A stretch of 64,000 nt of DNA from an uncultured Phycisphaerales bacterium (GTDB lineage Bacteria > Planctomycetota > Phycisphaerae > Tepidisphaerales > Tepidisphaeraceae), in the NCBI GenBank assembly GCA_963755915.1, contig CAVWLP010000002.1:1568001-1632000 (forward strand). Reading direction: 5' to 3'. Each line of letters starts with the position of its first letter. The stretch's first letter is position 1. Made by a program: the position numbers and the translations under genes. The notes beneath the pieces were generated by a model that worked only from the letters and a program-made list of their open reading frames with translations, was not told where the DNA came from and did no database searches. Positions 12,384-63,085 of the stretch are shown here, one piece after another.

Positions 12384-13328
12384 TCAGTATCCAGCCTTCT
12401 TGTCGACCAGACCGAGAAGCGCCTCGTGGTTTCGGTAGCGTTGCAGGTTCTCCGCAAATAATTCGTTGCAGCGGCGGCCTTCCTCTTCCGAGTTGGCAGA
12501 CCATTGCGACATGATGAGGTTTTCCATTGACCAGGCCGGGGAATCGGCCGGCGGCGCGGTGGGGAACTGCAAATCCGCACCGGCGATTGTGCCATTCATC
12601 AGCGCAGCGATGACTGCCGCTTCGTCCACAAGGGCGGGCCGGCCCGAAATGTCGATGAACCACGCCGACGGTTTCATCATCTCGAGCTGCGGCGCCCCGA
12701 TCAGCCCGCGCGTCCGTGGGGTCAACGGAAGCGCCAGCACGACAAAATCGGAACGCCCGAGCAGTTGGGGAAGCTGTTCCATCGAAAGCAATTCATCAGC
12801 GGGCGCGGGATTTGGGCGGGGGTTTCGCGCCAGCGCGATAATGCGCATTCCAAGCGGTCTGGCCAGTTTGGCGAGGGTCGCTCCGATGTTGCCGAACCCG
12901 ATGATGCCGAGCGTTTTTCCCTGGAGCTCTCGAGGCAAGCGCCAGTCGTGGGTTTTCCGGGATCGCTGCCACCAGTAGTCGATAAGCCGCGAGTTGACGG
13001 CAAGCATCGAAGCCAGCGCGTGCTGCGCTCCAGGCATGGCGAAGCACTCTTTAACGCAGGTCAGGGGGATCGGGCTTTCGATGAATTCGGGAAAGAGAAT
13101 ATTCTCGACGCCGCCCATCATCGCATGCACCCAGCGGATGTTTCGCGCCGCTTGGAAAAGCTCGGCGTCGAATCGCGCAACGCAAAGGACTTCGGCTTCA
13201 GGTGCGCGGCGCAGCGCCGATTCGCGATCGTATGCCTTGATGATCTCGAATCCGGGAACGGCCTGCGCCAGCTCGGCCAGGCCCTCAAGGTCCGTAACGA
13301 TTACAACTGGGATTGTTTTTCCACTCAT
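12384..13328 (-). CDS. D-2-hydroxyacid dehydrogenase family protein
   Basis: GIIGFGNIG, SDFVVLALPLTPRTRGLIG, MKPSA; the canonical RG and PH motifs are altered (ISGRP, SQW). Confidence 0.85.
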   Translation of the reverse strand: MSGKTIPVVIVTDLEGLAELAQAVPGFEIIKAYDRESALRRAPEAEVLCVARFDAELFQAARNIRWVHAMMGGVENILFPEFIESPIPLTCVKECFAMPGAQHALASMLAVNSRLIDYWWQRSRKTHDWRLPRELQGKTLGIIGFGNIGATLAKLARPLGMRIIALARNPRPNPAPADELLSMEQLPQLLGRSDFVVLALPLTPRTRGLIGAPQLEMMKPSAWFIDISGRPALVDEAAVIAALMNGTIAGADLQFPTAPPADSPAWSMENLIMSQWSANSEEEGRRCNELFAENLQRYRNHEALLGLVDKKAGY

Positions 13329-14494
13329 CGCTCAAATCCTTCAGCGGCCAATGCTTCAACTCGCGCGATCGCGTCATGATTCAACTGTCCCACTCCCAGA
13401 CCCGCCTGCTGCGGAAGCGAAACGTATCCACCATTCAGCACAAGCGGGCTGGAAATGATCTGCTGGTTGTTGATTCGAACCAGTTCGCCATGCCGGCGTG
13501 TGTCACGAAATAGGCTCGGAGCTGGATACTCCATCATGATTCCGCACGCCACGGTGGCCAGCACATGAACGTGTGCCGCCAGCGCTAATGCCGACCAGGG
13601 GCTGTGGGGCACGCAGAAGATGCCAAGCTCATTGGCGCGCCTCGCCACCCGCAATAGTTGCGAGACCCCGATTCGATAAGCATCGGGCTGGATAACATCA
13701 ACGGCATGGCGATCCAAAAAGCGATCGAACTCATAGCCATGGCAAAGCATTTCACCGCTGGCCATCAGCGTGCGGGAATTTCGCGTCAGCTCGGCATGGC
13801 CCTCGTAATCGTGTGGAGGCAACGGTTCTTCGAGAAAGTAGACGTCGTATTTTTCCAGGAGCGCGGCGATTTTCGCGGCACTCTTCGAGGATACGCCGGG
13901 GCCGAAAAATGCCGGGCAGCCGAAATCGACCATCAGGCGGACCCTAGGGCCGATTGCCTCGCGGATTGCCGCCAATCGCTCTTCATCTTCCGCCGCGAAG
14001 TGATTGCCCCAGCCAAATTTTATTGCGTGGAACCCGGCGGCAACGCATTCGCGGCTCTCGGAGGCAAGACGCTGCGGAGATTTCAGCGGCGGTTCGATGC
14101 CGGGTTTGTAATCGGTGAGGTCAAACGCGGTTCCGCTGGCGTAGACCATCACGTTCTCCTGAACAGCTCCGCCAAACAGCTTGTAAAGCGGTACGCCGCG
14201 CACTTTACCCAGGAGATCCCAGATCGCCATATCCAGAGCACCGGCAGCATATACAACCAGGCCGCCCTGCCACTGCGTCGCCTCGACCAGATCGGCCCAG
14301 ATGCGGGCGACATCTTCGGGTGATCGGTGCGCGACGATGTCAGCCAGCCGCCATGGATAATTCTCGATGATCGGCCGGATCACTGAAACGGGCGCCTCGC
14401 AACCCCCGATGCCGACATGGCCGTCGTCGGATTTGACCTCGACGAGCGTCATTGGAAGTTTCTGACCCAGGATTCTGATGCTGCTGATCTTCAT
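13325..14494 (-). CDS. Mandelate racemase/muconate lactonizing enzyme family (probable acid-sugar dehydratase)
   Basis: ALDMAIWDLLGK, LMVD, FLEEP, ASGE, IQPD, VPHS. Confidence 0.9.
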   Translation of the reverse strand: MKISSIRILGQKLPMTLVEVKSDDGHVGIGGCEAPVSVIRPIIENYPWRLADIVAHRSPEDVARIWADLVEATQWQGGLVVYAAGALDMAIWDLLGKVRGVPLYKLFGGAVQENVMVYASGTAFDLTDYKPGIEPPLKSPQRLASESRECVAAGFHAIKFGWGNHFAAEDEERLAAIREAIGPRVRLMVDFGCPAFFGPGVSSKSAAKIAALLEKYDVYFLEEPLPPHDYEGHAELTRNSRTLMASGEMLCHGYEFDRFLDRHAVDVIQPDAYRIGVSQLLRVARRANELGIFCVPHSPWSALALAAHVHVLATVACGIMMEYPAPSLFRDTRRHGELVRINNQQIISSPLVLNGGYVSLPQQAGLGVGQLNHDAIARVEALAAEGFER

Positions 14495-14527
14495 CGATTA
14501 TGCTATGAAAAAGGAAATAGTGAGGCC

Positions 14528-15583
14528 CTAGCGCAATGAGATTTCACTGATACGATTGGTGCGATTTTCGTTGGAATCGGGCTCCCCACCGATCAGCCAC
14601 CAGGTGTCGTTGGAAACCTTGATCAGCGGCGCGCAACTGGCCTGGATAACCGTTCGGCCGATGAGCGATGCGCCAAGCGTACGGAGGTCGAGCAGCCAGA
14701 CTTCATCGTGTATATGGCCGTCGGCGCGTCCTGTAAGCAAAATGTGATGGGTGTCGATTGGATCGGCGCTCCAGCAATAGCCGTCGATGGGAAGGGTACC
14801 CAAAACAGACCAATGACCTGTTTTGGGGTCATAGCGGAGGGCATCACTGAGAGTCCGGTCGTGGACGCTTCCGGTTCCATCAGCCAATCCACCGAGGACG
14901 TAGATAGAGCCGCCGCACACGACGACGCCCGGATAGGCGCGGCCAGCGCCAGGGAGCGGCGTTGATTCAGTCCACTTCGAATCTTTGGAGGATAGATCGA
15001 GGGACCAGACTCGGTTCGTTGCCGTCCGACCGTCGAGCTGGCCGCAGATCACGTAGAACTTTCCGTCGGCGATGGCTCCATCACAGGCACTGATCGCGAC
15101 GGGAAAATCGGGCAATCTGCGAACTTCCAGATTTCCATCGACGGATGTGAGATAGCAGGCGACCTTGGTGGCGGTGTCCGGAGCGCTCAGACCACCCGCA
15201 AGATACAGGCCGGTATCGTCCTGGGCGAAGGCGCCTTCGGCCAAGCCCGTGGGAAGATCCGGACCGTTTGACCACGCATCTTTTTCGAAAACCTCCGTGC
15301 CTTTTAGGAAGCTTTTTATAGTGCGCTGCGCGTTCCAGGAAGTCCCCCCTGCTACGATGACTTTTCCAGCCACCAAGCCACCGGCGTGACTGCCGCGGCC
15401 GATTTGAATCGGCGGACCTTCGACTACCTGGGCCGTCCACTCGGAATTCTGCAAGTCGATCTGAACGGCCTTTATTGATTTGCTGTTCAACTCGTTGAAT
15501 AGTAACCCCATAGCAACTCCTACCGCCAGTGTCGAAACCGAACACCGCTCAACGGCCCGAACTATGAAACTATTTCGAATCAT
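14528..15583 (-). CDS. Secreted Kelch-repeat protein (NanM-like fold)
   Basis: Repeated VAGG/LAGG/VLGG/LIGG and W motifs of Kelch blades; RBS gggagga before ATG 15583; hydrophobic N-terminus. Confidence 0.8.
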   Translation of the reverse strand: MIRNSFIVRAVERCSVSTLAVGVAMGLLFNELNSKSIKAVQIDLQNSEWTAQVVEGPPIQIGRGSHAGGLVAGKVIVAGGTSWNAQRTIKSFLKGTEVFEKDAWSNGPDLPTGLAEGAFAQDDTGLYLAGGLSAPDTATKVACYLTSVDGNLEVRRLPDFPVAISACDGAIADGKFYVICGQLDGRTATNRVWSLDLSSKDSKWTESTPLPGAGRAYPGVVVCGGSIYVLGGLADGTGSVHDRTLSDALRYDPKTGHWSVLGTLPIDGYCWSADPIDTHHILLTGRADGHIHDEVWLLDLRTLGASLIGRTVIQASCAPLIKVSNDTWWLIGGEPDSNENRTNRISEISLR

Positions 15584-15693
15584 TGGGTGTTCCTCCCAAT
15601 CAGACCCTTTCCGGAGAATGAGGAAGCTCGATTTTTTCCCGTGCGAATGATCAGAACGAGGCGCGACAAAAGCGCGACAAAACACGTTCAATG

Positions 15694-16794
15694 TCACCCG
15701 TCTTCGCGCGACGCCGGCCCGGTTAAATGCATGAAAGCTTCCTCCAGATTTGCTTCGAGCTCGGCAAACCTGGCAACCCTGATGCCGGCCTCGATTAAAA
15801 GACGCAGCGCGGTTTCCAATTGAGCGTCGTCGGCATCCACCTCGTATCGGAGCGTCTTGGCGCCACTGGCGGCAGTGTCATTGGCGCGCATGGGCCTCCA
15901 ATTGCCGGGTGCATCGCGAAGAACGCGCTGCGCGCCGGCGCAATCTCCGGCCACCTTGATTTCCATCAACCGTGTCGGCCGAACCTGGCGCAGAACGTCG
16001 CGCACGGTTCCGGACGCGACCATCTTTCCGCCAACAAGGATTCCAATTCCGTCGCAGACATCCGCGAGCTCGGGAAGAATATGGCTGCTGACCAGAACGG
16101 CCTTACCGACCTTGGCCAGTTCTCTCAGTAGCTGGCGCATCTGCACGCGCGCCCTGGGATCGATCGTCGCGGCGGGTTCGTCGAGAATTAAAATGGCCGG
16201 GTCGTGAAGCAGCGTTTTTGCGATTCCCACGCGCTGCTTCATCCCGCGCGACAATCCACCCATGTCTTTATCGCGGAATTCCGCAGCGTTGGCGATGCTC
16301 AGACAATAACCAATCCGGTCAATGCGGGCCTTTCGCGGGATACGATACGCCGCGGCAAAAAAATCCAGATATTCCTGAACGGTGAGCTGGGGATAAATGC
16401 CAAAATTGTCCGGTAGATAGCCAACGAGCCGCTTGATTCGATCTCGATTGCCGGTGACGTCCTTCCCGTCGATCATGGCGACGCCACTGGTCGGCTGGAG
16501 GAGCCCGGAAAGTATCCGAAAGGTAGTGGTCTTTCCGGCGCCGTTGGGACCGATATATCCGAAGACCTCGCCCGCTTTGACCGTCAGATTCAAGTCGCGA
16601 AGAGCATAGTGTTCGCCATATTTCTTGGTCAGACCGCGCGTGATGAGGATTGGCTGCGGCGCGGGCGCCGATGCGTCGACTTCCGGCTTGGGTTCAGTTC
16701 GCGGCGGTTGTCCGGGCTTTGGCATGGACAAGTCCCTGCCAGCCTCAATTGCCAATGGATTCCGTTGCATGGCTTCCCTTTGGACGCTGTTCAT
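15694..16794 (-). CDS. ABC transporter ATP-binding protein (ABC-2 exporter type)
   Basis: GPNGAGKTT, LSRGMKQR, ILDEP, SSH. Confidence 0.95.
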   Translation of the reverse strand: MNSVQREAMQRNPLAIEAGRDLSMPKPGQPPRTEPKPEVDASAPAPQPILITRGLTKKYGEHYALRDLNLTVKAGEVFGYIGPNGAGKTTTFRILSGLLQPTSGVAMIDGKDVTGNRDRIKRLVGYLPDNFGIYPQLTVQEYLDFFAAAYRIPRKARIDRIGYCLSIANAAEFRDKDMGGLSRGMKQRVGIAKTLLHDPAILILDEPAATIDPRARVQMRQLLRELAKVGKAVLVSSHILPELADVCDGIGILVGGKMVASGTVRDVLRQVRPTRLMEIKVAGDCAGAQRVLRDAPGNWRPMRANDTAASGAKTLRYEVDADDAQLETALRLLIEAGIRVARFAELEANLEEAFMHLTGPASREDG

Positions 16795-17732
16795 TTGGTG
16801 GCGTGAAGCTTTCGCGCTTTGGGTGACTTTCGATAAGTGTCTCCATCACCCGAATCCTGCAGCAACTCGCGCACGACCGGCTCGTCCAAAACTTGAGCGA
16901 TTTGCGCTTCGGTCAGACTTGCGAACGGAGCGGGCATAAAATTTCCCGGGATCTCCCGAGCATTGGCAAGCAGCGTAAAGGTCGGAAAGACTCCATATTT
17001 ATGCAGGACGGCCAAAAGCGCGGACAACCGTTTTTGCGCGGCAGCCGCCGCAACCCAATCCTCAGCCTCGGCCGCCGTCTTGATCGCTTTGACCCACGAC
17101 GGGGCGAGTGAAAATACTCCATCCAAATGTTCGCGAATCCCATGCCGAAGGAGCAAGTCGACCAGGTGAGCCTGGGCAACCACCACCCTGAAATCCGACG
17201 GTACGGAATCAATCAGTTGCCGAGTGAGCGAAGAATCTCCCGAGCACTTGATCCCACCAATCTTGGGATGCGTGGCGAGTTCGCGGACGGTATCGAGTTC
17301 GAGCCCGGTTTTCGTAAGCACGGGCAGGTCGTAAAGGAAAACGGGATTTCGCGAACGGTCGGCGAGGGATTTAAAATAGGCGATCAGTTCCGCCTGGCTG
17401 AAGCGAAAGAAGTAAGGAGTAAGCACGACAACAGCGTCGACTTTACGCTCGTTGAGAAACTGAATTCGCTCGAGGGTTCGGCTTTGGCCGGTGTCACCGA
17501 CGCCGACCATCACCTCGCCTCGCCCGCGGGAAAACTCGATGCAATGGTCTACCAGCGAACGATAGGTGGCGTCGGTCAGCATTTGCATGGCGCCCATCGT
17601 TCCGCCGACCAGAACGCCGGTCATTCCGCCAGTCCATTGGTCTGCCAAATGTGCTTCGAGGCCTTCAATGTGCAGGGATTCCCCGTCAGTAAGCGGAGTC
17701 CCTATTGCGGCAATTAGTGATATTTCATCCAT
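16791..17732 (-). CDS. DHDPS/N-acetylneuraminate lyase family aldolase (paralog 1)
   Basis: AIGTP, GGTMG, LTPYF, LYDLP, GIKCS Schiff-base lysine. Confidence 0.88.
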   Translation of the reverse strand: MDEISLIAAIGTPLTDGESLHIEGLEAHLADQWTGGMTGVLVGGTMGAMQMLTDATYRSLVDHCIEFSRGRGEVMVGVGDTGQSRTLERIQFLNERKVDAVVVLTPYFFRFSQAELIAYFKSLADRSRNPVFLYDLPVLTKTGLELDTVRELATHPKIGGIKCSGDSSLTRQLIDSVPSDFRVVVAQAHLVDLLLRHGIREHLDGVFSLAPSWVKAIKTAAEAEDWVAAAAAQKRLSALLAVLHKYGVFPTFTLLANAREIPGNFMPAPFASLTEAQIAQVLDEPVVRELLQDSGDGDTYRKSPKARKLHATK

Positions 17733-17833
17733 TTATGCCATTATCCCAGAAGGCAGACCATTGTACCAACCCTTTGTCAAATTCAGTCAAAAAAGGTGCT
17801 TGAAGTTTGTCTGAATGTCTTTGAATGATTACG

Positions 17834-17859
17834 TTGACAATTCTTTCATTAATTGTCAA
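17834..17859. promoter_or_regulatory. Palindromic operator candidate TTGACAA-N12-TTGTCAA
   Basis: TTGACAATTCTTTCATTAATTGTCAA in the divergent aldolase/pilin intergenic region; same geometry at 31969..31994. Confidence 0.65.
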
Positions 17860-17945
17860 GATAAATCCGTTGTTTCGGGTACGGGTCGGCATAGGTGACC
17901 CCGATTGTTGTGAGTCGGGTCTATTTTTCTGCGGTGAGGTGGCAC

Positions 17946-18707
17946 ATGCCGGGCATCACACACAAGCGACCGATGTCAGCGGGGTTTACGTTGGTTGAGC
18001 TGTTGGTTGTTATCGGGATCATTGCCATCCTGATCGGAGTGCTGCTTCCCGTGATCAGCCGGGCGCGAGACGCCGCGCTGACGACACAGTGCGCAAGCAA
18101 TCTGCGCCAGGACGGTATCGCTGTGAATCAATACCTGAGCGACTACCACGGATTTTTGCCGCCCTACATGCAAGCCGGCACTTTTCCGCTTCCCCAGCCG
18201 CCTTATATTTTCCAATATCTCCCGGCGCTTTACCAGACACCGAATGCGAATACCTGGGTGTGTCCTTCGGATAACTTTCAATTGGCGCTCGGTACCTCCG
18301 GAGAAGTGGGCCCCGAACGCGGGCCCTATCCCGAGGTGAACGATCAGGCGACAGATATTTATTACAGCTATGCACAGAATGGGTGCGAGCCGATGGGACA
18401 CGGATATGTCTATCCAGGAATGAATTCATATCTCAATCCGGGGCTCGGTATGAAAGTGCGTCAGTCGGGAGATTTTATGTTCCTGTTTGAGACCGGCCAG
18501 GACGGACTTCAGGTGTACTCTCAGCCGACGAATTACTTTCGCTTTAATCACCTGCACAACACCGCAATGAATGTCCTGTTCATGGATGGACATGTTGACA
18601 CAAGAACTGCCAACCAGATGCTTCCCAGCGCCACAAATCCATGGACGGCAGACCTGCGGGCCCTGTGGTTCGGACAGGCTGATGCAATTTCGCAATTGAC
18701 GTTCTAG
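17946..18707 (+). CDS. Prepilin-type N-terminal cleavage/methylation protein with H-X9-DG motif (DUF1559-like), paralog 1
   Basis: [47 protein letters not shown]. Confidence 0.9.
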
Positions 18708-18715: not shown

Positions 18716-19750
18716 TAGAGCATTTTCACGTGGCCTCTAGCGCCAGCGGCAAGGATGCGATAAGTTGAATGCCGACAGGAGGTCGTCGGCATGGAAGCGT
18801 ATTCTTTGGATCTTCGTAAGCGAGTTCTGGCCGCGTGCGATGCGGGCCAGCCCACCAAAAAAGTCGCGGAGCAATTCGAGGTGTCGCCGGCCTGGGTGCG
18901 ACGTTTAAAACAACGTCGCCGGGAAGACGGCAGCATCGAGCCGCGGCCCATCCCGGGCGCCAAACCCAAGCTGGATCAGGCCGCTCGCGATTGGCTGCTG
19001 GAGAAGGTGCGTTGTCAGCCCGATGCGACGTTGGAGGAACTGAGACACCGGCTCAAAACGGAATTGGGGATCGGCATCAGCATCGGCGCGTTGTGGATGG
19101 CGCTGCGGAAGCAGAAGTTCTCTTTTAAAAAAAGTCGGTCCACGCCGCCGAACAGGAGCGGCCCGACGTCCAGGCGCAGCGGGCAGTCTGGTTCGAGCAG
19201 TTGAAGGACATACCGCTGAAAAACCTTGTGGTGATCGATGAAAGCTGCGCCGTGACCAACATGATGCGGACGCGTGGACGATGCCTCAGGTCCGATCGTC
19301 TGGTCAGCGCCGTGCCGCATGGGCATTGGAAGGTGCTGACCATCATCGCGGCCATGACGCTTCGCGGCGTTCAAACCGCCGTGACCGTCGACGCTCCTTG
19401 CGATGGCGAGATCTTCCGCAACTTTGTCCAGGACGCCCTGGTCCTCACGCTGCGGCCCGGGCAGGTGGTGATCATGGATAATCTGCAATCCCACAAAGTC
19501 AGCGGGATTCGCCAGGCGATCGAGGCCACGGGGGCCCGTCTGCTGTATCTGCCGCCGTACAGTCCCGACTTCAGCCCCATCGAACCGATGTGGTCCAAGG
19601 TGAAGCAGAAGCTTCGTTCACTGGCGGCCCGGACGGTGGAGACATTGGGCCAAGCGGTGGAGGAAGCACTGGCCGCGGTCACCGCCTCCGACTGCGAAGG
19701 TTTCTTCAGGCACACAGGGTATACGCTACATGATAAATGAAAATGCTCTA
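18716..19750 (+). mobile_element. Complete IS630-family element
   Basis: Terminal IRs TAGAGCATTTTCA / TGAAAATGCTCTA with TA target dinucleotide; split transposase. Confidence 0.92.
18791..19740 (+). CDS. IS630 transposase (HTH ORF 18791..19204 + DDE ORF ..19740, joined at an A7 slippery site near 19130)
   Basis: YSLDLRKRV HTH; IDES, MDNLQSHK, LPPYSPDFSPIEPMWSK. Confidence 0.92.
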
Positions 19751-20908
19751 ATCGCGCGGACTGGACTTTGTCGGCAGAGTGCGAACGGATTCTCCTTCGA
19801 CGAGCTTTCCCTGAATAAACAGAGGCTCGGCGGGCACGATCTGATTGTCCACAAATTCCGTGATAATACGTGCCAACGCCTGCCCGATGCCGTCCGCATC
19901 AGGCACATAGCTGGTGATCGATACCGAGCCGGATAAATGCTGCACGTTCTGACCATAGCCAACGAGGGACAGATCTTCGGGGATCTTCAGACCGAGTTGG
20001 TTGGCGGCGCCCATCGTTGCCTGACAGACCCGCCAGTTCTCTGCAAAGATCACAGTCGGGCGCGTACGGCTGGACAGAATCTCGGTGATCATTTGCGGCA
20101 AAGATTCTCCAGCATAGGCGTGGAAGAATAGGTGGCGGTTGATTGGCAGGCCGAGCGAGGCAAAAGCTTCTCGATACCCGGCGGCAAAAATGCCGATCGC
20201 TTCCTGATCGATGGCGGCGCTGCACACCATCGCAATTTCCCGGTGTCCTCGATCCAGCAGATATCTCACCGATTCGCGGCTTACCGCTTTCACATCCTGT
20301 CCCACCCACGGCGCTTTGAGCGGCGAGAATGTGCACGAGCTGACAACAAGAAAATCGGGAGGAACGATCTGGCGATAAGCCTCGAAACAGTTCCCAATGG
20401 CGCAAATGCCTCTGATGCGCACCTGGTGGATGATTCGCCGCAGACGTGCCTGGTCCTCCTGAGGATTTTCGCCCAGACTCAGAATCTGCACGCCGAAGCT
20501 CTGTTTCGCCAGTGAGCGTTCGATGAATCGCAGCATTGTCGCGAAAGCATAGTCTTCATCGAGGTGAGTGGTTTGGGCGTTGGAGCAGACGACGAGAATT
20601 GTTCCGCGGGACAATCGCGATTCTGCCATCGAATCGACGATGCGATTAACAAACGTGCCGCGAGCGCGCTTGCGAGAGATATACCCGTCGCGTTCCAGGA
20701 CGGCCAAAGCCTGACGGACCGTCGAACGGCTCAGATGATGCAGATCGACAAGCTCCGTTTCGGTTCCCAGGAGGTCGCCCGGCTTAAGACCGCGTTCAGC
20801 GATATCGCTCAGGAGCTTTTGAGCCAATTCCAGGTATTTTGGCGCAAAATTGCGCTGATCAATCCGCAGGAGCGACTGACCGTCATCTATGCTCAATTGA
20901 TCTACCAT
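19748..20908 (-). CDS. GntR wHTH + LacI-type sensor domain transcriptional regulator (A)
   Basis: LGTETEL...SRSTVRQALAVLERDGYISRKRARGTFV; C-terminal GLKIPEDLSLVGY. Confidence 0.9.
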   Translation of the reverse strand: MVDQLSIDDGQSLLRIDQRNFAPKYLELAQKLLSDIAERGLKPGDLLGTETELVDLHHLSRSTVRQALAVLERDGYISRKRARGTFVNRIVDSMAESRLSRGTILVVCSNAQTTHLDEDYAFATMLRFIERSLAKQSFGVQILSLGENPQEDQARLRRIIHQVRIRGICAIGNCFEAYRQIVPPDFLVVSSCTFSPLKAPWVGQDVKAVSRESVRYLLDRGHREIAMVCSAAIDQEAIGIFAAGYREAFASLGLPINRHLFFHAYAGESLPQMITEILSSRTRPTVIFAENWRVCQATMGAANQLGLKIPEDLSLVGYGQNVQHLSGSVSITSYVPDADGIGQALARIITEFVDNQIVPAEPLFIQGKLVEGESVRTLPTKSSPRD

Positions 20909-31968: not shown

Positions 31969-31994
31969 TTGACAAGTCATCCAAACATTGTCAA
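31969..31994. promoter_or_regulatory. Palindromic operator candidate TTGACAA-N12-TTGTCAA
   Basis: TTGACAAGTCATCCAAACATTGTCAA between aldolase 2 and the divergent regulator. Confidence 0.65.
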
Positions 31995-46498: not shown

Positions 46499-46531
46499 GC
46501 GATTTTGCCGCGATCTGTCACCGATCTTGTA

Positions 46532-46568
46532 TTCCACGATACGAAACGATATATTCACAATAATGGAA
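46532..46568. promoter_or_regulatory. Two imperfect 15-bp palindromes, candidate IclR operators
   Basis: TTCCACGATACGAAA (46532..46546) and TTCACAATAATGGAA (46554..46568) in the 64-bp divergent gap; the second overlaps the iclR start codon. Confidence 0.5.
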
Positions 46569-49096: not shown

Positions 49097-49114
49097 CTTT
49101 CCAGGTGTGATCCG

Positions 49115-52718: not shown

Positions 52719-54479
52719 ATGACATACAGCATCAAGCACCGCATTAGTACCACTTTTGTCGTCCTGACATTTTTGTCGGCAAGTCGCATCTTCGCACAGG
52801 ATGCCTCGGATAAAATCCCCGCCGCTTCGCCCACGATCGTCTCCACATTCACAGCCGCCCCAGGAGCGAAATATCCCTTCCGGGAAAACATGTACGAGCC
52901 CCTGCTCCTCCCCGACGGCCGCATCCTCGCGCTTTCGGTAGCGCGCACCAACGGCCAGCAAACCATGCAAGGCCGGTATTCCAATGATGAAGGTCGCACC
53001 TGGACCTCACCCGTCGATCTCTTCCAGTTTCCCCGCGAGGCGGGCGGTTTTGCAATCTTCAATCGGCTCATCGACCGCAATGGAGACATTCATATTTTCA
53101 TTCTTGGCGACGCCAACTCCGGCACACTCTATCCCGCCTCCCAGGAAGCCCCCGCAACTCGCCCCGGAACAATTCTTGAAACCTGGTATGTGAAGTCCTC
53201 CGATCACATGCAGCATTGGAGCACCCCGCGCCGCATCTCCGAGCACGGCGACGACCTCCTTTCCGTCATCCAATTGCGCAGCGGCCGAATCGTCCTCCCC
53301 CTTTCCTTCCAGCGCATCGCCGACTACAACGCCAAGCGCTCCGGCCTCGAGGGATTCACCTACTACGGCAGCTACGGCGTCACCAGTCTCTACTCCGACG
53401 ATGACGGAGACACCTGGAATCAATCACCCGACGTCCTCACCGCCGAAGCCCCCGATCTCAGCACCTATGGCCTCAACGAACCGGTCGCCATTCAACTGAA
53501 CGACGGGCGCGTCTGGATGTTGATGCGCTCACAGTACGGCCGATTTTTCGATTCGTATTCTCCCGACGGTGCCCATTGGTCGCCCGCCGAGCCAACCGAT
53601 CTCATTTCCTCCGACTCCCCCGCGGCCCTGCTTCGCCTCAAAGACGGAAGCATTCTCCTCTTTTCCAACGCCTGCCTGCGCTACCCCTACGCCTACGGCG
53701 GGCGCGAGGTTTTGCACGGCGCCATCTCAACCGACGAAGGCAAAACCTGGCGCGGATTTCGCGAAATACTTCGCGATCCGCTCCGCGCCCAGCCCAGGGA
53801 CTTCCACGGCGACTATGGATATTCCTACACCTTCCCCGTGCTCACCGCGCAGGGAAACGTCCTCTTCACAAATTGGGTCGAACCCGACTGCGGCCAAACG
53901 CGCACTTTCAAACTGCTCGACCCAAACTGGCTACTCCAAACCCATCAGGAAACAGATTTCTCCAACGGACTCGACGACTGGTCGACCTTCGGCACCAAGG
54001 GCGTCGAATGGCGGCAGAACCCGGACAACAAGGACGCTCACGTGCTTTCCGTCCAAAGGGCCGACACCGCCTGGCCGGCCGCCGCCATCTTCAATTTCCC
54101 CATGGGATCCAAAGGCACGCTGAAAATCCGCCTCCAAATAAGGAGCGGATTCCAGGGCGCTCAACTGGGTCTCACCGATCACTTTTCCGTCCCGTGGGAT
54201 AACCAGGACAAGTTCTTTAACGCCTTCAATCTTCAAATCGACCCATCCGGCAGGCTTAGCACCGGCCAATCTCTTTCAACCGATCAGTGGCACGATCTCC
54301 AGTTCAGTTGGGATAGCAACACCGGCGAATGCCAGATCACCGTCGATGGAAACCAGGCCGGATTCGTGCAGGAAAACCGTCGTCCCCTTGGAATAAACTA
54401 TCTCCGGATTCGATCGACTAGCGACGAGCCCGATGCGGGTCTTCTGGTCTCGCATGTCACCGCCGACGTCTCCAACTGA
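52719..54479 (+). CDS. Secreted sialidase-family (BNR) protein with a C-terminal beta-sandwich
   Basis: Signal peptide; SNDEGRTW, SDDDGDTW, STDEGKTW Asp-boxes; LNEP, LMRS, YSY. Confidence 0.85.
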   Translation: MTYSIKHRISTTFVVLTFLSASRIFAQDASDKIPAASPTIVSTFTAAPGAKYPFRENMYEPLLLPDGRILALSVARTNGQQTMQGRYSNDEGRTWTSPVDLFQFPREAGGFAIFNRLIDRNGDIHIFILGDANSGTLYPASQEAPATRPGTILETWYVKSSDHMQHWSTPRRISEHGDDLLSVIQLRSGRIVLPLSFQRIADYNAKRSGLEGFTYYGSYGVTSLYSDDDGDTWNQSPDVLTAEAPDLSTYGLNEPVAIQLNDGRVWMLMRSQYGRFFDSYSPDGAHWSPAEPTDLISSDSPAALLRLKDGSILLFSNACLRYPYAYGGREVLHGAISTDEGKTWRGFREILRDPLRAQPRDFHGDYGYSYTFPVLTAQGNVLFTNWVEPDCGQTRTFKLLDPNWLLQTHQETDFSNGLDDWSTFGTKGVEWRQNPDNKDAHVLSVQRADTAWPAAAIFNFPMGSKGTLKIRLQIRSGFQGAQLGLTDHFSVPWDNQDKFFNAFNLQIDPSGRLSTGQSLSTDQWHDLQFSWDSNTGECQITVDGNQAGFVQENRRPLGINYLRIRSTSDEPDAGLLVSHVTADVSN

Positions 54480-57463: not shown

Positions 57464-57484
57464 GACGCGGTACAATTCTCGGCA

Positions 57485-58138: not shown

Positions 58139-58474
58139 GAATCTTCGGCAAACTCGACAAGGAGGGCATACCCTGTTTGCCCTTGCCCTGCCTCGTTGCC
58201 AGCGGAAGCCGGGCATGTCGTATTCGATTGTCAAAGATCAAATAGTCTATGCAGGAATCGAACACACTGCCTTTCCATTCAACCGTGCGCGTTTCCTCCG
58301 AAGCGCGGCGCACTTTGGGTCGCCCTCAGGCAGAAACCGAATACGGACCGAACCTCCCAATGATCATTTCAACCTAACTTCAGTGATGAAAGTACGATAC
58401 GCGTCCTCGTCTCAGCCATTGTCTGTAATATAGACCTATTGCGAACAAATCTATAGATTCATTTCATAAATGCA

Positions 58475-60772
58475 ATGAGGAGTTTAGCAATGCGGCAATC
58501 GTGTATTTTGATTTGTCTTCTTTTTATCTGTCATTTTGCCTTTGCTGATTCGCTGCCGCTGGAATTGCGGATCAGTGTCGATAACACAGGTTTGGGGCCG
58601 ACTGGCGCGAAAATGCCCGCGCGAGTGAGAATAGATTTCCGTGAAATCCTGCACGACCCCACCGCTCGAATTCGGCCCGAAACGCTGAAGCTTTGGCATT
58701 TGAAAAAAGATGGCGTAACCGCGGAGAGCGATCCCGTTCCCGTCCGTTTCGATGATCCCGATCCCAAGCCTGAGAGCTTCTTTTGGGATTTCGTTGGCGG
58801 CGGGGGACAGAGCGGGGATCTGGTCTTTCAGCACCGTGTCGATTCCAGCCCTGTGAGCCATTACCGCCTCGAATTCGAGCAATGGCATCCGCAGGATGGC
58901 CCGGTGTTGCCCTCTCCCACGCCTCAGATCGGCGACTATGACATTCTTCGATACGAAACCGGCGGTCCGATGAGCGGAATATTCCAGACGAAGATCGCCA
59001 TCGCCGACTGGTATGGAGACGGCAATTTGGACATCCTCGCCGGCGACGGCCTGGGACATATCACTATTTATCGCCGGCTCGGCAAGGACTCCTTTGCCTT
59101 TGGGGTGCCGGAACTTCTCAAGGTCAATGGAAAGCCGATCAAGTTCGATTACATGACCGATCTCGACGTCGTCGATTGGAAGGACTCAGGAAAGCTCGAC
59201 CTCATCGTGGCGGATGAAACATCGAATCTGTGGTATGTCGAAAATATCGGCACGAGAACGAACCCGGAATTGGCTCCGCCCGTGCCCCTGCTGGACGCAA
59301 CAGGGCAACAAATCAAGTCCCCCAAAGATCCTTGCAAGGAATTGGACTTCTTCAAAAAAGATTATGCCCCGCTTCCGACCGTTTATGACTATTTCGGTCA
59401 CGGCAAACACGACCTGATATTGGGCGGATACATCACAGGTCAGATGTTCCTATATGAAAACGTAGCAAAAACCGCGCATGAAGCGCCGGTACTCGTATCC
59501 CGAGGCCCTATTCCGGGCGCCGATGGTAATCCGATCGACGTCACATGGTGCGCGTCTCCATCCTTTGGAGATTTGGAAGGCAATGGATTGCCCGTAATGG
59601 TCAGTGGCCATATCGCAGAAAATAAGGCCGCCTTTCATTGGACGAACGAGCCATCACTCTATTTCTTCAGAAACACGGGCACTCGGGATCATCCCGTCTG
59701 GACCCCCGCGGAAATGGGTTTTCCGAAGCACTGGACTGATTTTCCGCCTGACGTCACAACGCCGCGTTTTGTGGATTGGACCGGCGATGGCCGGCTCGAC
59801 ATCATCATGAGCGGACGTTCGGAAATCTTCTTCTTTAAGAATGTGGGCACGCGCACAAAGCCGAAGTTCGAATACCGCGGCCGCTTTCAAATGGCGCACG
59901 GGCCGATGCTGCTTTGCTACAACTACAACGCCATCGCTCCATGCTTCGGCGATCTCGATGGAGATGGCCTGCCCGATTTGATCAGGGGCGGATCCGGAAA
60001 TGATCCCTGGGCCCACATGGTCAGCTTCGACAATGCTCCGCGTTTTGAAGATCGTGGATTGCTCACTGCCGATGGGAAACCCATCTACCACGAATTTCCT
60101 CCCGGCGACGATACCTCGTTTCCCTACCTCTACGATTGGACAAACCACGGATTGCTTGACCTGATTCTGGGGGACGGCGATGGATACGTCTGGTATTACA
60201 AAAACATCGGGACGCGAGCGTCCCCACAATTTGCGGCGGGTACAAAGTTGCTGATGACGGACGGACAACCCCTCTGCGTGGGTCCACCCACTTCAAACGT
60301 CATCAACACGTTCGAAGCGCACAGCGGCAATCGCGCAGTGCCCGCGCCGGCAGACTACGGAAACGGAAAGACCGATCTCATATGCTCCAACGCCAATGGA
60401 GATATTTTCTATTACCGCAATGCGGGGAACGGACGCTTTGAGCCGGGTGTCAAACTCGCCTCCGGCAATAACCGCGCCTTCGTCTGCCCGGTGGATTGGA
60501 ATCATGACGGCAGGATGGGGTTTGTTGCCGTTTGGAGCTCGGGACCCAAGGCAAAATTGTTCCTGAATCGTGGTATTGGGCCCAACGGAATCCCTGATTT
60601 TGACGTCAAAGACATCACCATGCCCTGGATTCCCACGCCACGGCCGCTGGCGATGGATTGGAATCACGATGGGCAGGTCGATCTTCTTTTCGCATCGTCT
60701 TACGCGCTTCTACATTTCGCGGAACATCATTTCGTCGAACATGGGTATGTTGAAGCAACGCTGGAGCGATGA
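58475..60772 (+). CDS. Secreted FG-GAP/VCBS repeat protein 2
   Basis: Signal peptide; DWYGDGNLDIL, DWTGDGRLDII, DLDGDGLPDL, DWNHDGQVDLL; colinear with 40091..42525. Confidence 0.9.
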   Translation: MRSLAMRQSCILICLLFICHFAFADSLPLELRISVDNTGLGPTGAKMPARVRIDFREILHDPTARIRPETLKLWHLKKDGVTAESDPVPVRFDDPDPKPESFFWDFVGGGGQSGDLVFQHRVDSSPVSHYRLEFEQWHPQDGPVLPSPTPQIGDYDILRYETGGPMSGIFQTKIAIADWYGDGNLDILAGDGLGHITIYRRLGKDSFAFGVPELLKVNGKPIKFDYMTDLDVVDWKDSGKLDLIVADETSNLWYVENIGTRTNPELAPPVPLLDATGQQIKSPKDPCKELDFFKKDYAPLPTVYDYFGHGKHDLILGGYITGQMFLYENVAKTAHEAPVLVSRGPIPGADGNPIDVTWCASPSFGDLEGNGLPVMVSGHIAENKAAFHWTNEPSLYFFRNTGTRDHPVWTPAEMGFPKHWTDFPPDVTTPRFVDWTGDGRLDIIMSGRSEIFFFKNVGTRTKPKFEYRGRFQMAHGPMLLCYNYNAIAPCFGDLDGDGLPDLIRGGSGNDPWAHMVSFDNAPRFEDRGLLTADGKPIYHEFPPGDDTSFPYLYDWTNHGLLDLILGDGDGYVWYYKNIGTRASPQFAAGTKLLMTDGQPLCVGPPTSNVINTFEAHSGNRAVPAPADYGNGKTDLICSNANGDIFYYRNAGNGRFEPGVKLASGNNRAFVCPVDWNHDGRMGFVAVWSSGPKAKLFLNRGIGPNGIPDFDVKDITMPWIPTPRPLAMDWNHDGQVDLLFASSYALLHFAEHHFVEHGYVEATLER

Positions 60773-60810: not shown

Positions 60811-61671
60811 TCAGTTCAGGCTGGCCTCGAACGCTTCGGGGCTTTGGTAGCCTATCGCCGAGTGACGTCTCTGGCGATTGTAAAACACTTCAATGTACTC
60901 AAAGATCGAACGCCGAGCCTCCGCTTGCGTTGCGTAGTGCTCGTGATAAATGAGCTCCGTCTTCAGCGTGCTGAAAAAGCTCTCCATCACCGCGTTGTCG
61001 TAGCAATTGCCGGTGCGGCTCATGCTCCGCTCCATCCCATGCTCCGCCAGCATCTGTCGATAAGTCTCGCAGGCGTATTGGACACCGCGATCGGAGTGGT
61101 GCAGCAAACCTCGCTCCGGTCGGCGATGTGTCAGCGCCATCGATATCGCTTCCAGACACAGCTCACTTCGCAGATGATCGGCCATCGACCAGCCGACTAT
61201 TTTCCGACTGCACAGGTCGATCACGGCCGCCAGGTATAGGAATCCTTCATCCGTCGGAACGTAGGTGATGTCGCAGCACCACTTGCGGTTGGGCGCCTCA
61301 GTTGCGAACTGGCGGTCCAGCACATTGGCCGCGACCGGCTCATCGTGATTCGAATCGGTGGTATGGACGACGAATCGCCGGCGAATCCGCGATTGCAATC
61401 CGGCCTGTTTCATCAGACGCGCCACCGTGTTCACGCAGACGCTCACCTGCCGATCCGCCAGCTCCGCGTGCACCCGCGGGCTGCCGTAGGTATAGCGACT
61501 CTCCTCATGAACCTCGCGGATCTTCTCAGTCAGCTCTTCCCGGCGCTTGTGCCGCGGGCTGGCTGGACGTTTCAGCCAGGCGTAATACCCGCTGCGGCTG
61601 ACTTCCAGCGCATCGCACAATGCGGCCAGATCGAACGGGTCCCAATGTTCTTTGATCCAGGCGAATCTCAT
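60811..61671 (-). CDS. IS3 transposase OrfB (DDE)
   Basis: YGSPR, WCCDITY, HHSDRGVQY, GNCYDNAVMESFF. Confidence 0.95.
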   Translation of the reverse strand: MRFAWIKEHWDPFDLAALCDALEVSRSGYYAWLKRPASPRHKRREELTEKIREVHEESRYTYGSPRVHAELADRQVSVCVNTVARLMKQAGLQSRIRRRFVVHTTDSNHDEPVAANVLDRQFATEAPNRKWCCDITYVPTDEGFLYLAAVIDLCSRKIVGWSMADHLRSELCLEAISMALTHRRPERGLLHHSDRGVQYACETYRQMLAEHGMERSMSRTGNCYDNAVMESFFSTLKTELIYHEHYATQAEARRSIFEYIEVFYNRQRRHSAIGYQSPEAFEASLN

Positions 61672-61970
61672 GGGTTCTGGCTGGCGAAGTAGGCCGTCGC
61701 TTTTTTTAAAATCTCCTTCTCGGTTTCGACCCGCCGCAATTGCTTTTGCAACTCGCGGATGCGGGCCTTGAGCAGCGTCGGATCGTTGGTGTCTGGAAAC
61801 GCGGGCTCCTCAGCCGCGGGCTTGATCAGTCCACGTTTTTTCATCCAGTGATGCACGATGTGCACCGGAAGGCCCAGTTCCTGGGCCGCTTTCCTTTGTG
61901 TGTAGCCTTGATCGGTGACGAGTTTGCAGGCTTCGTCCTGAAACTCCCTGGAATAATGTTTGCGTCCCAT
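61668..61970 (-). CDS. IS3 transposase OrfA (HTH)
   Basis: RKHYSREFQDEA; EKEILKKATAYFA with a TTTAAAAAAAG -1 frameshift signal near 61700. Confidence 0.93.
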   Translation of the reverse strand: MGRKHYSREFQDEACKLVTDQGYTQRKAAQELGLPVHIVHHWMKKRGLIKPAAEEPAFPDTNDPTLLKARIRELQKQLRRVETEKEILKKATAYFASQNP

Positions 61971-62065
61971 GGCAATTCGCTCCTTCAGCCGGATTATCCG
62001 GCTTCAGGCCGCGCCCACCAAACGTGGGGAAGGTCAGAGCTAGCCTCTTGAGAAATCAAAATGGA

Positions 62066-63085
62066 TCACGGATCGCCTTTCAGATATCTCTGCGCCCAAT
62101 CCCAGGTCATGTCGTAAAAGTTTTCGGTGCTCACTGAGTCTGAGCCGGACGGATGATCCATATTCGGATAAACGGCTAGGGCCTTGATTCCCGGAAGCTG
62201 GTCAAACACCGCCTGGATGGTTTGCGGCGGGCAAGTTGTGTCTTTACCGCCGGCACAAAGGAGCGTGGCGGCATGGTTGCGATGGGCAAGGTTGAGCTGG
62301 TCGAAATAATCGAGCGTTGAAAGATTCTGCGGCGTGAGCGCGTGATATCGGTTCAGCAGCGTCTTGGCGAGAGACTCGTGGGCAACGGCGGCAAGACGCA
62401 TGTCGCACAAAAAAGGTATTCTGGCAACGACCGCCTTGATGCGCGGGTCCAGCGCCGCCACAGCCAGTGCAAGCCCACCGCCCTGGCTTATACCAATCGC
62501 GCCGATGCGGTTCGGATCGACATCGGGCCGTGAGCAGAGATAGTCAACGCCTCGAACCATATCCATGTACGCGCCTTGGTAAAAATATCCTTCCGGGCGA
62601 GAGATGTGCCACGTCAGGAAATCAGGACCGTCGATTTTCCAAAGCTCAGCCGATTCCCCCTGAGACCGCGGGCATACATGCAGAATGACATACCCGCGCA
62701 GCGATTCGCTCAATTCCAGTCCCCATCCGTCGCCGCGATATCCGGGCCCCGTGATAATTGCCGGAAATCTCCGAGGCACTTTGCTTCCGGTGTCGTAAGG
62801 TTTGGCGAGATAGGCGCGAATTTTGACGCCGTCGAGACTTTCATAGGTCACCCTGATTTTCACGTACTGCACCGGCTCATTAACCAGTTCCTCCTGGGCG
62901 TTCAGCGACTTGCTTTCCGTACGCTTTAATGTTCGGCTCCAGAAGTCATCGATTTTGTCACTGCTCGGCCGGTTATCGTTGGCCGGTGGAGTGGATTCAG
63001 CGTGACCAATTTGAGCGACAATTTCTAATAGGGACAGAACGAGCAAGATTGTTCTAATTCGCTCGTTATTTATGAAGCTTCGCAT
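62066..63085 (-). CDS. Secreted acetylxylan esterase/cephalosporin deacetylase-like (CE7) esterase
   Basis: GISQGG nucleophile motif, RIPFLCD, DTTCPP, C-terminal His; signal peptide. Confidence 0.88.
   Translation of the reverse strand: MRSFINNERIRTILLVLSLLEIVAQIGHAESTPPANDNRPSSDKIDDFWSRTLKRTESKSLNAQEELVNEPVQYVKIRVTYESLDGVKIRAYLAKPYDTGSKVPRRFPAIITGPGYRGDGWGLELSESLRGYVILHVCPRSQGESAELWKIDGPDFLTWHISRPEGYFYQGAYMDMVRGVDYLCSRPDVDPNRIGAIGISQGGGLALAVAALDPRIKAVVARIPFLCDMRLAAVAHESLAKTLLNRYHALTPQNLSTLDYFDQLNLAHRNHAATLLCAGGKDTTCPPQTIQAVFDQLPGIKALAVYPNMDHPSGSDSVSTENFYDMTWDWAQRYLKGDP

Follow-up and report, generated by a model that had tools for sequence, protein, structure and literature searches.

A scattered planctomycete form of a multi-phylum gene cluster with two non-canonical sialidase-fold families, possibly for catabolism of sialic-acid-like sugars

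The 64,000-nucleotide (nt) stretch of DNA analysed here (the window) comes from an uncultured Phycisphaerales bacterium (assembly GCA_963755915.1, contig CAVWLP010000002.1, positions 1,568,001 to 1,632,000). Between its positions 12384 and 63085 lie genes for two sialidase-fold proteins (BNR1 and BNR2), a Kelch protein, two esterases, a symporter, two DHDPS-family enzymes and a range of oxidoreductases, metallohydrolases and pyridoxal phosphate (PLP) enzymes, which a first-pass annotation had taken together as one undescribed system for scavenging nonulosonic acids or N-acyl amino sugar acids. We scanned the open reading frames (ORFs) of the window against Pfam (48 ORFs, and 17 more) and NCBIfam (43 ORFs), and every domain family named in that annotation was matched by Pfam (Table 1), i.e. 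its domain assignments were correct. None of the 43 ORFs reached an NCBIfam equivalog cut-off, and therefore all specific protein names stay open. Part of these genes belongs to a cluster that is common to several soil and freshwater phyla and that lies scattered and partly broken in the window.

Table 1. Genes and mobile elements of the window, in order of position
Feature	Position	Strand	Remarks and basis
Transposase fragment	4191-4514
2-Hydroxyacid dehydrogenase (2-Hacid_dh)	12384-13328	-	Pfam
MR_MLE enolase-superfamily acid-sugar dehydratase	13325-14494	-	Pfam
Kelch protein	14528-15697	-	exported; Pfam
ABC ATPase	15694-16794	-	Pfam
DHDPS1	16791-17732	-	Pfam
DUF1559a	17895-18707	+	prepilin-like; Pfam
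IS630-type element	18791-19740
GntR1	19748-20908		GntR + periplasmic-binding-fold (PBP) regulator; Pfam
DHDPS2	30965-31906	-	DHDPS/NAL superfamily, candidate ulosonate lyase, cytoplasmic; Pfam DHDPS 98.7 bits
GntR2	32004-33098	+	GntR helix-turn-helix + PBP regulator; Pfam
DUF1559b	33279-34151	+	prepilin-like; Pfam N_methyl + N-terminal part of SBP_bac_10
BNR1	34172-35410	+	sialidase-fold BNR_2 protein, exported; probable start near 34211; Pfam
SGNH/GDSL esterase	35419-36174	-	lipoprotein-type signal; Pfam Lipase_GDSL_2 107 bits
GFO/IDH/MocA oxidoreductase	36184-37209	-	cytoplasmic; Pfam
Class-III aminotransferase-fold PLP enzyme (Aminotran_3)	37345-38602	-	Pfam
GntR3	38633-39778	-	GntR + PBP regulator; Pfam
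First FG-GAP/VCBS beta-propeller protein	40148-42525	+	exported; Pfam FG-GAP_3
SSS (SSF) symporter	42632-44214	+	Pfam SSF in two frames
SDR1	44260-45048	-	gluconate-5-dehydrogenase-like, by best solved relatives
M81 (MlrC-like) metallohydrolase	45032-46666	-	probable start near 46498; Pfam DUF1485 281 + MlrC_C 158 bits
IclR-family regulator	46482-47321	+	heads plus-strand run ending at BNR2; Pfam
RraA-like protein	47337-47999	+	class II pyruvate aldolase/decarboxylase fold; Pfam 119 bits
M24 metallohydrolase	47999-49096	+	Pfam 131 bits
AstE/AspA-family N-acyl-amino-acid deacylase	49115-50038	+	Pfam 99.9 bits
SDR2	50031-50846	+	Pfam
PALP	50847-51929	+	fold-type II PLP enzyme, threonine-synthase/dehydratase-like; Pfam PALP positions 54-295 from 51051
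SDR3	51949-52707	+	Pfam
BNR2	52719-54479	+	sialidase-fold BNR_2 protein, exported; Pfam
Second FG-GAP protein	58475-60772	+	exported; membership uncertain; Pfam
IS3-type element	60811-61970
AXE1/CE7 esterase	62066-63085	-	Pfam

Scanning the BNR1 alignment over one genome per species gave 63 loci from six phyla (Acidobacteriota, Planctomycetota, Verrucomicrobiota, Chloroflexota, Hydrogenedentota and Actinomycetota); the window's own genome is not among them. These loci were compared with the window by tblastn of the window proteins, and then by blastp with seeds from the window and from five Pfam-annotated loci against 5999 ORFs. A core set recurs around the BNR1 relatives, i.e. DHDPS (22 of the 63 loci), FG-GAP (21), the SDR1 type (21), SGNH (17), Kelch (16), SSF (15), GntR-FCD regulators (13; the type to which Escherichia coli NanR belongs), GFO (12), the BNR2 type (10), class-III aminotransferase (9), DUF1559 (7), M81 (6), AstE and GntR-PBP (5 each), PALP (4), CE7 and IclR (3 each, the latter including L020 and L025) and RraA (2). 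Eight families were found in none of them, namely M24, enolase, 2-Hacid_dh, PhyH, ABC ATPase, ABC-2, HEAT and TPR-sulfotransferase; four of these (ABC ATPase, 2-Hacid_dh, M24 and PhyH) serve as internal controls, being common families that nevertheless gave no hit at the same thresholds. The expectation that the genes co-occur elsewhere was thus borne out for the core set, but not for M24, the enolase, 2-Hacid_dh or the PEP-CTERM proteins, and hardly for CE7. The spread is bimodal, with at least four of 16 window families in 23 loci and none in 26; for the 37 loci of at least 20 kb, the corresponding counts are 15 and 16. Co-location is above chance for a subset of the families only. On a BNR1 tree of 62 loci and the window (the locus omitted has no long BNR1 ORF), loci carrying the cluster are clumped, none of 500 shuffles being as low, yet at least ten changes are needed, and these loci are spread over at least four lineages.

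In several genomes the recurring genes are tightly packed. Two Phycisphaerae loci, L041 and L055, are compact arrays of 15 and 11 such genes, both with RraA between BNR and DHDPS genes; the former consists of GntR-PBP, DUF1559, BNR2 type, SGNH, double BNR, RraA, DHDPS, BNR1, Kelch, DHDPS, FG-GAP, GntR-FCD, SDR, GFO and SSF, and repeats the order GntR-DUF1559-BNR of the window. In L020 (Chloracidobacterium) a same-strand run comprises SDR, GFO, SDR, BNR1, DHDPS, MBL, AstE, SSF, Kelch, PALP, M81 and aminotransferase, with RidA nearby, and in four related Bryobacterales loci AstE, SGNH and BNR1 are contiguous, with M81, Kelch, aminotransferase, PALP and DHDPS in the vicinity. SDR1 is 65-69 % identical to SDRs adjoining BNR1 in four Pirellulales/Lacipirellulaceae loci. 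A 678-aa database protein, P0038, carries BNR_2 and Kelch/NANM in one chain, a fusion that argues for functional coupling of the sialidase fold and the Kelch protein. Two further arrangements were seen among the related loci: in L061 (14037-17759) SGNH and FG-GAP are fused in one protein of 1240 aa, and in the acidobacterial L019 an outer-membrane protein with CarboxypepD_reg and OMP_b-brl_4 domains lies beside Kelch and BNR1.

Measured against this recurring set, the window contains a supported core of ~23 kb from DHDPS2 to BNR2 (30965-54479) and a satellite at 12384-18707, formed by the DHDPS1-Kelch operon and DUF1559a, while the genes at 19.7-30.8 kb and past 54.5 kb are neighbours with no support as parts. 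In the satellite operon (12384-17732, minus strand) the genes for DHDPS1, the ABC ATPase, Kelch, the enolase-type dehydratase and 2-Hacid_dh overlap or abut, and at the other end of the core BNR2 closes the IclR-headed run with a gap of 12 nt to SDR3. Therefore, the view of the whole interval 12384..63085 as one system holds for these two stretches and lumps too much beyond them: strand changes divide the region into at least nine blocks under four regulators (three GntR-PBP, one IclR), which together with the insertion sequence (IS) elements indicates that it is not one unit. The earlier interpretation as a whole is partly supported, i.e. it rested on a real observation but was drawn too wide. 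The window does hold two related modules, as shown by its paralogue pairs (DHDPS1/DHDPS2, 55 % identity; DUF1559a/b, 42 %; GntR1/GntR3, 63 %; the two FG-GAP proteins, 31-33 %). As a separate observation, the gene for DHDPS1 is followed by an ABC-2-type ATPase gene (15694-16794) without a permease, and that for DHDPS2 by one or more ABC-2 permease genes and HEAT-repeat proteins (29162-30834) without an ATPase, so that the two operons carry complementary halves of one transporter, the genes of which are absent from the 63 related loci.

The two modules also share a 26-bp palindrome, TTGACAA-N12-TTGTCAA, of which the window holds exactly two copies (about 0.15 matches would be expected by chance even with up to two mismatches). 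One (17834-17859) lies between DHDPS1 and DUF1559a and the other (31969-31994) between DHDPS2 and the divergent GntR2, both thus in divergent promoter regions beside the paralogous DHDPS operons. The palindrome is a candidate operator or promoter; having been noticed post hoc, it may be taken as a hint of co-regulation, not as proof. GntR2 is 81 % identical to the regulator of L062 and 46 % to that heading the DUF1559-BNR array of L041, and looser look-alikes of the palindrome occur upstream of both homologues, whereas at no more than one substitution it was absent from the 63 loci save for one unrelated site in L046. A common operator was also sought for the paralogues GntR1 and GntR3, and no shared site was found.

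By eye, a signal peptide or lipobox can be read on BNR1, BNR2, Kelch, SGNH, FG-GAP and CE7 and is absent from the catabolic enzymes, a division that fits a scheme of capture, import and catabolism. No SusC/SusD pair, as in polysaccharide utilisation loci of the Bacteroidota type, was matched by Pfam in the window. The PEP-CTERM proteins, which had been described as interleaved with the other genes and as a possible capture apparatus, instead sit outside the interval, at 5754-12360, with a weak motif match (E ~7e-4). By sequence (tblastn) they recur in 0 of the 63 loci, a single PEP-CTERM protein upstream of BNR1 in L044 being too little to count them as parts, and the capture role is not supported. 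For the DUF1559 proteins such a role is not supported beyond their adjacency in Planctomycetota loci.

BNR1 (Pfam BNR_2, 121 bits) is a six-bladed Asp-box beta-propeller with a signal-like N-terminus. Its best PDB sequence match is the sialidase of M. viridifaciens (1EUR, E 1.4e-9), and its structural model, with a predicted local distance difference test score (pLDDT) of 88.4, has GH33 sialidases and KDNases as top Foldseek matches (TM 0.67-0.69). With GH33 exo-sialidases and KDNases, such as 1EUR and 7LBU of P. acnes, it shares the propeller, two triad arginines (Arg278 and Arg333), the Glu (Glu262, Glu260 in 1EUR) and a probable Tyr nucleophile; the equivalence of Tyr370 to the latter is an estimate, as the position lies outside the printed 1EUR alignment. 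H87, E109, E262, R278, R333 and Y370 occur without exception in all 46 BNR1-family sequences compared, and therefore the departures of this site from GH33 (see below) represent a conserved variant and not decay. The family comprises 716 database proteins at E <= 0.001 among 8000 candidates scored and is thus large yet compact, as only 26 of its 50 %-identity representatives attain E <= 1e-30. Searches of solved structures and curated families returned no characterised member, and no description of the His variant was found in the open-access literature searched. In L062, the closest relative by GntR2 identity, the BNR1 homologue (10001-11124) is in two pieces, corresponding to residues 40-188 and 262-407, and has no long ORF.

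BNR2 combines a signal peptide, a propeller and a C-terminal domain resembling a carbohydrate-binding module, i.e. the architecture of GH181. It matches the structures of the GH181 enzyme Amuc_1547 of Akkermansia muciniphila (8AXI, 8AXS, 8HLS, 9EOB; PMC10067855) at E 2.2e-26 by phmmer, including the C-terminal domain (residues 385-584), and the six best Foldseek matches of its model (pLDDT 80.7) are all GH181 (TM 0.66-0.69; the next is at 0.40), no other structures matching the full length of the model, although identity to Amuc_1547 is only ~21 %. Glu218, Arg234 and Arg305 of GH181 map to E254, R270 and R329 of BNR2 (with an offset of 21 from chain numbering), which, like D365, the probable counterpart of Asp345, are invariant in 12 of 12 BNR2-family sequences. 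Unlike in GH181, Trp212 and Trp298 are not kept, and five residues past Asp365 there is a Tyr (Tyr370; Tyr in ten of the 12 sequences, Asn in two) where GH181 has Gln350, which follows His349 and is the residue that defines this inverting family; the correspondence of Asp345 and Gln350 goes by spacing, with no printed alignment. Judging from these residues, BNR2 looks like a GH181-shaped enzyme with GH33-type chemistry. GH181 is described as an inverting sialidase (PMC10067855). The BNR2 group would bridge the chemistry of the two families.

As to the remaining parts of the proposed front end, both pieces of the symporter have SiaT (5NV9) as best PDB match (E 1.3e-38 and 1.2e-17), the Kelch protein scores 80.6 bits against Pfam NANM (cut-off 45), covering profile positions 2-132 of 350 only, and matches YjhT (2UVK) partially at E 1.8e-9, and the Schiff-base Lys162 and Tyr134 are present and invariant in the DHDPS subfamily of DHDPS1 and DHDPS2. 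The SGNH protein bears a lipobox at its N-terminus (by eye). An identity as a NanS-type sialate esterase is not supported, since among Pfam families it matches the generic Lipase_GDSL_2 and Lipase_GDSL only, and no sialate O-acetylesterase family; NanS belongs to a separate Pfam family. SDR1 was considered as an N-acylmannosamine dehydrogenase without finding specific support, its best solved relatives being the gluconate-5-dehydrogenase-like SDRs. A reading of GFO as an NAD-dependent glycosidase of the GH109/177/179 type, as described in PMC11535203, was likewise considered and not adopted; GFO has no signal peptide.

As the first-pass annotation had stated, families of the textbook back end are not recognisable here: no match to NanK, NanE, NagA or NagB was found among the scanned window ORFs (48 by Pfam, 43 by NCBIfam), nor among 71 ORFs of the five Pfam-annotated related loci (17.6-21 kb each). 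What accompanies BNR1 instead in six loci (L020, L025, L028, L029, L037 and L039) are at least two genes of an amine module, i.e. the AstE-type deacylase, M81, the PLP enzyme PALP and the class-III aminotransferase; five of the six also have an SGNH esterase or DHDPS gene, and M81, in each locus where it occurs, is always with other amine-module genes. This association makes a non-phosphorylative back end plausible, as far as can be inferred. It is reasonable that an N-acyl hexosaminate, being an N-acyl alpha-amino beta-hydroxy acid, would suit AstE/AspA deacylases and fold-type II PLP eliminases, and a PLP ammonia-lyase acting on a 2-amino aldonate is described in PMC9529869. The known kinase-free route with a DgaE-type PLP enzyme similarly arrives at pyruvate by means of a dehydrogenase, an eliminating enzyme (dehydratase or PLP eliminase) and an aldolase of the DHDPS family; the likeness is one of logic only, the PLP enzyme of the window being of fold-type II and threonine-synthase-like, not of the DgaE type. 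For M81 itself, the atlas and literature search gave generic MlrC/M81 labels only.

We also considered ectoine degradation, in which DoeA (M24), DoeB (AstE) and EutB (PALP) represent the same three families that are adjacent in the window (47999-51929). The NCBIfam scores are far below the cut-offs, i.e. 25.6 against 575 for M24 (DoeA_2), 104 bits against 402.7 for AstE (DoeB, its only NCBIfam match) and 50.6 against 413 for PALP (EutB). Moreover, M24, although operonic in the window, never travels with the others, as AstE and PALP elsewhere accompany BNR1, not M24, and this reading was rejected.

Taken together, the reading that we favour, with a probability only slightly better than even (about 0.55), is that a catabolic cluster conserved across several phyla is present in the window in a rearranged Planctomycetota form and acts on a glycan-bound ulosonic (sialic-acid-like) sugar; its route probably differs from the textbook one. 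Domain content, folds, active-site variants, the recurrence of the genes, the shared palindrome and the gene disruptions were observed, while the substrate class, the reaction order and every enzyme specificity in the following scheme are what we infer. At the periplasm or surface, BNR1, the GH181-like BNR2, the SGNH lipoprotein esterase and the FG-GAP propellers, joined in planctomycetes by DUF1559 proteins, would strip O-acyl groups and release the terminal sugar. The exported Kelch protein may, like NanM, accelerate the interconversion of anomers, and the SiaT-related Na+ symporter would import the sugar, from which the divergent DHDPS/NAL enzyme, with the RraA-type enzyme beside it, would split off pyruvate. 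The SDR and GFO dehydrogenases could then oxidise the remaining (amino) sugar. In this genome and in some Acidobacteriota, de-N-acylation by the AstE/AspA-type enzyme and M81 and deamination by the PLP enzymes would follow, replacing phosphorylation by NanK and NanE.

The nearest described systems are the nan clusters of PMC8461474, where carriers of the SSS family fused to NanM (SiaF) are predicted in Planctomycetes and Verrucomicrobia. These share with the window an exported sialidase fold, a Kelch mutarotase-like protein, a SiaT-near SSS carrier, a DHDPS/NAL enzyme, SGNH, a GFO-type enzyme and GntR. They differ in that the window and the five related loci gave no NanK/NanE/NagA/NagB match, in that the lyase, mutarotase and carrier of the window fail the specific models or lack the contact residues, in that Kelch and carrier are separate genes, and in the additional FG-GAP, DUF1559, RraA and amine-module genes of the window. 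The system is best filed as a variant, hitherto not described, of the sialic-acid-type utilisation clusters.

A good number of observations weigh against this reading, beginning with the active sites. The arginine triad of GH33 is not complete in BNR1, which has two arginines and a His: in the alignment to 1EUR, from which sequence similarity is weak (E 1e-9), the invariant His87 takes the place of the RIP arginine, the first of the triad, and the invariant Glu109 that of the acid/base Asp. Eight Neu5Ac-coordinating residues are named for SiaT, of which Arg135 abolishes transport when replaced by Glu (PMC5931594). In the symporter these residues are mostly altered: Ser60 and Asn247 are identical and Thr63 is Ser, whereas Thr58 is replaced by Asp, Phe78 by Tyr, Gln82 and Gln250 by Thr, and the carboxylate-binding Arg135 by Gly or, in another alignment register, by His; in four homologues from related loci this position is occupied by Trp or His. 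The earlier designation as a SiaT-type carrier therefore stands as to nearest solved relative, but not as to this arginine. For DHDPS1 and DHDPS2, scores against the NCBIfam nanA model TIGR00683 are 59.5 and 49.6 bits (cut-off 382), against PRK04147 85.2 and 62.6 (cut-off 281) and against dapA, which exceeds nanA for both, 110.8 and 98.8 (cut-off 206), and among solved structures the two enzymes are equidistant from DapA, YagE, HOGA and NAL. In place of G(S/T)TGE, the canonical carboxylate-binding motif of DapA and NanA, they carry GTMG(A/L) (GTMGL in DHDPS2), with Met46 invariant in 28 of 28 sequences of a subfamily for which solved-structure and curated-family searches gave no characterised member. 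For the Kelch protein the NCBIfam NanM score is 72.7 bits, with the cut-off at 416. No protein of the window thus attains the curated cut-offs for NanA or NanM. GFO as NanOx/NanY was rejected, its only two PDB matches (E 0.0036 and 0.0096) being neither NanOx nor YjhC. By its folds and closest solved relatives the front end resembles one for sialic acid, as had been proposed, yet all its parts are non-canonical.

The genomic context adds to these reservations. Among the 26 BNR1 loci with none of the families, 16 of which are at least 20 kb long, three were inspected and have housekeeping or otherwise unrelated neighbours; the amine-module loci come from two acidobacterial lineages only, four of the six being close relatives of each other; and the remainder of the ~5.0 Mb genome may encode NanK, NanE, NagA and NagB. 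Five genes, including the window's only symporter, are broken as assembled. The aminotransferase is split over two frames (Aminotran_3 positions 69-333 in 37345-38316 and 10-55 in 38255-38602, by Pfam), the first FG-GAP gene is interrupted twice, around 41300 and 41446-41516, where the alignment of homologues passes from frame 2 to frame 3 and on to frame 1, the symporter has a frameshift near 43027-43033 (from alignment of intact homologues), and SDR1 suffers from a 1-nt deletion. The PALP frame is open from 50847 without ATG, GTG or TTG before 51051; the PLP-lysine motif lies upstream of 51051 and a homologue aligns from 50910. All five lie within 37.3-51.1 kb, i.e. five of the 12 genes in that interval are damaged, compared with none of 17 well-covered ones outside it (p 0.0067 by Fisher's test, post hoc and with our own classification). 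The pathway may be a decaying copy in this organism, unless the breaks are assembly errors.

The division of the window genes among four regulators and many strand blocks leads to the best surviving alternative, a mosaic of independent operons, in which a glycan-trimming set (BNR1, BNR2, SGNH, FG-GAP, DUF1559) happens to lie beside two unrelated cytoplasmic pathways with no single substrate. One would be an N-acyl amino acid or small-peptide operon under IclR (RraA, M24, AstE, SDR, PALP and SDR, with M81 and SDR opposite) and the other a sugar-acid operon (DHDPS1, the enolase-type dehydratase and the 2-hydroxyacid dehydrogenase). The two IS elements, the absence of M24, enolase and 2-Hacid_dh from the related loci and the rarity of RraA, IclR and PALP there agree with this, as do the planctomycete arrays L041 and L055, which entirely lack the amine module, and the best NCBIfam matches, far below cut-off, of AstE (DoeB, of the ectoine pathway) and of IclR (BhcR). 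Yet L020 interleaves AstE, PALP, M81 and aminotransferase with BNR1, DHDPS, SSF and Kelch on one strand, the Bryobacterales loci join AstE directly to SGNH and BNR1, BNR2 itself ends the IclR-headed run, and RraA stands between BNR and DHDPS genes in both Phycisphaerae arrays. We therefore regard the mosaic as doubtful, though deserving of serious attention.

A bolder version of the favoured catabolic cluster would make it an undescribed and widespread pathway by which free-living members of the Planctomycetota, Acidobacteriota and other groups obtain nonulosonic acids of bacterial type (legionaminic, pseudaminic or other N-acylated or aminated forms) from microbial surface polymers, with BNR1 as a new sialidase-fold glycosidase family with a His-Arg-Arg site, the GTMG DHDPS as the lyase and deacylase, PLP eliminase and aminotransferase as a kinase-free back end. 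Legionaminic and pseudaminic acids are reported to be widespread on environmental bacteria. An open-access phrase search for a catabolic route for them found none, its matches being for 'pseudaminidase' only, with no pathway. These acids are a minority possibility as the substrate, and the pathway in this full form is rather unlikely. If true, it would account for the large excess of predicted sialidases over nanE in metagenomes from soils and floodplains (PMC10570557).

The same conserved cluster could also act on a substrate that is not an ulosonic acid, i.e. on a sugar or sugar derivative of microbial or plant polymers that is neutral, amidated, lactonised or, as an amino sugar, cationic, because the sialidase-fold proteins, the carrier and the DHDPS enzymes have each lost or changed residues that hold the carboxylate: the arginine replaced by His87 in BNR1, Thr58 (now Asp) and Arg135 in the carrier, and G(S/T)TGE in all 28 DHDPS-subfamily sequences. 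A precedent is Amuc_0623 of A. muciniphila, a sialidase-fold protein described as having no sialidase activity (PMC10067855; bioRxiv 2024.03.27.586211). Against this, GH181 is reported to retain sialidase activity with only two triad arginines (PMC10067855), BNR1 keeps Arg278, Arg333, Glu262 and Tyr370 and BNR2 the Glu/Arg/Arg of GH181, and the association with a NANM-type Kelch protein, including the fused form, points to a keto-acid sugar that anomerises, which leaves a non-ulosonic substrate unlikely.

Ordinary Neu5Ac or Kdn utilisation, with a divergent standard locus here, NanK, NanE, NagA and NagB (or a NanE-II/RokA route) elsewhere in the 5.0 Mb genome and the extra enzymes as unrelated neighbours, can draw on the nearest solved relatives (Neu5Ac-active enzymes and SiaT), on the NanR-type GntR-FCD regulators and on scattered nan genes documented in other bacteria (PMC8461474), but is improbable given the changed Neu5Ac contacts of the symporter, the NanA and NanM scores far below cut-off, the lack of matches to nanK, nanE, nagA and nagB in all five of the annotated related loci and, from metagenomes of soils and floodplains, a number of predicted sialidase genes far above that of nanE (PMC10570557).

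The open-access literature searched gave no description of this gene set; the maps of planctomycete nan clusters in PMC8461474 (Fig. S7) may show similar ones. According to PMC10570557, metagenomes of soil, fresh water and hot springs abound in predicted sialidases while nanE, the marker of canonical catabolism, is rare in them, and the planctomycete isolate described in PMC11929135 has over 80 genes for predicted sialidases and lacks NanA. The cluster, with its two non-canonical sialidase-fold families, SiaT-like carrier, distinct DHDPS subfamily and putative kinase-free back end, would be a testable candidate for what such environmental 'sialidases' feed. Even if the substrate were ordinary Neu5Ac or Kdn, the BNR1 family, the GTMG DHDPS subfamily and the BNR2 group, as a possible bridge between GH33 and GH181 chemistry, would remain as results.

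The window also shows signs of rearrangement. A stretch of 1.6 kb containing SDR1 and the 3' half of the M81 gene (44203-45797) is directly duplicated at 2575-4170 with 99.8 % identity, i.e. three substitutions and one indel, the indel being the lesion that breaks SDR1 in the main copy. SDR1 is intact in the upstream copy alone (2632-3408), which terminates at the transposase fragment. The IS630-type element directly follows DUF1559a, where after DUF1559b comes BNR1; its insertion may have displaced a sialidase-fold gene from the DUF1559a module. A 14-mer common to 46573-46586 and 58221-58234 was dismissed, since one copy (46573-46586) is internal to the IclR gene and chance alone should give a repeat of this length in 64 kb.

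Further observations concern the neighbouring genes. The PEP-CTERM proteins at 5754-7616 and 10531-12360 are 92 % identical over their C-terminal 318 residues and differ in their N-terminal halves, one of which is Vgb-lyase-like, as if a domain cassette had been exchanged or duplicated in recent times. In its N-terminal part, the first of the two is paralogous to an unnamed exported protein (23262-24158), with inverted similarity of 70-73 % over ~430 nt between 6159-6610 and 23347-23798. A small membrane-anchored protein without a Pfam family (24662-25165) carries one Asp-box-like motif, SDDEGQTW, and a homologue 46 % identical to it adjoins the SSF gene in L062 (4148-4510). GC skew lies between -0.09 and -0.21 over 34000-56000 whatever the gene strand and is about zero before ~26 kb and after 56 kb. 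Finally, a perfect 24-nt tandem repeat of 7.9 copies occupies 63811-64000, in an open frame that leaves the end of the window.

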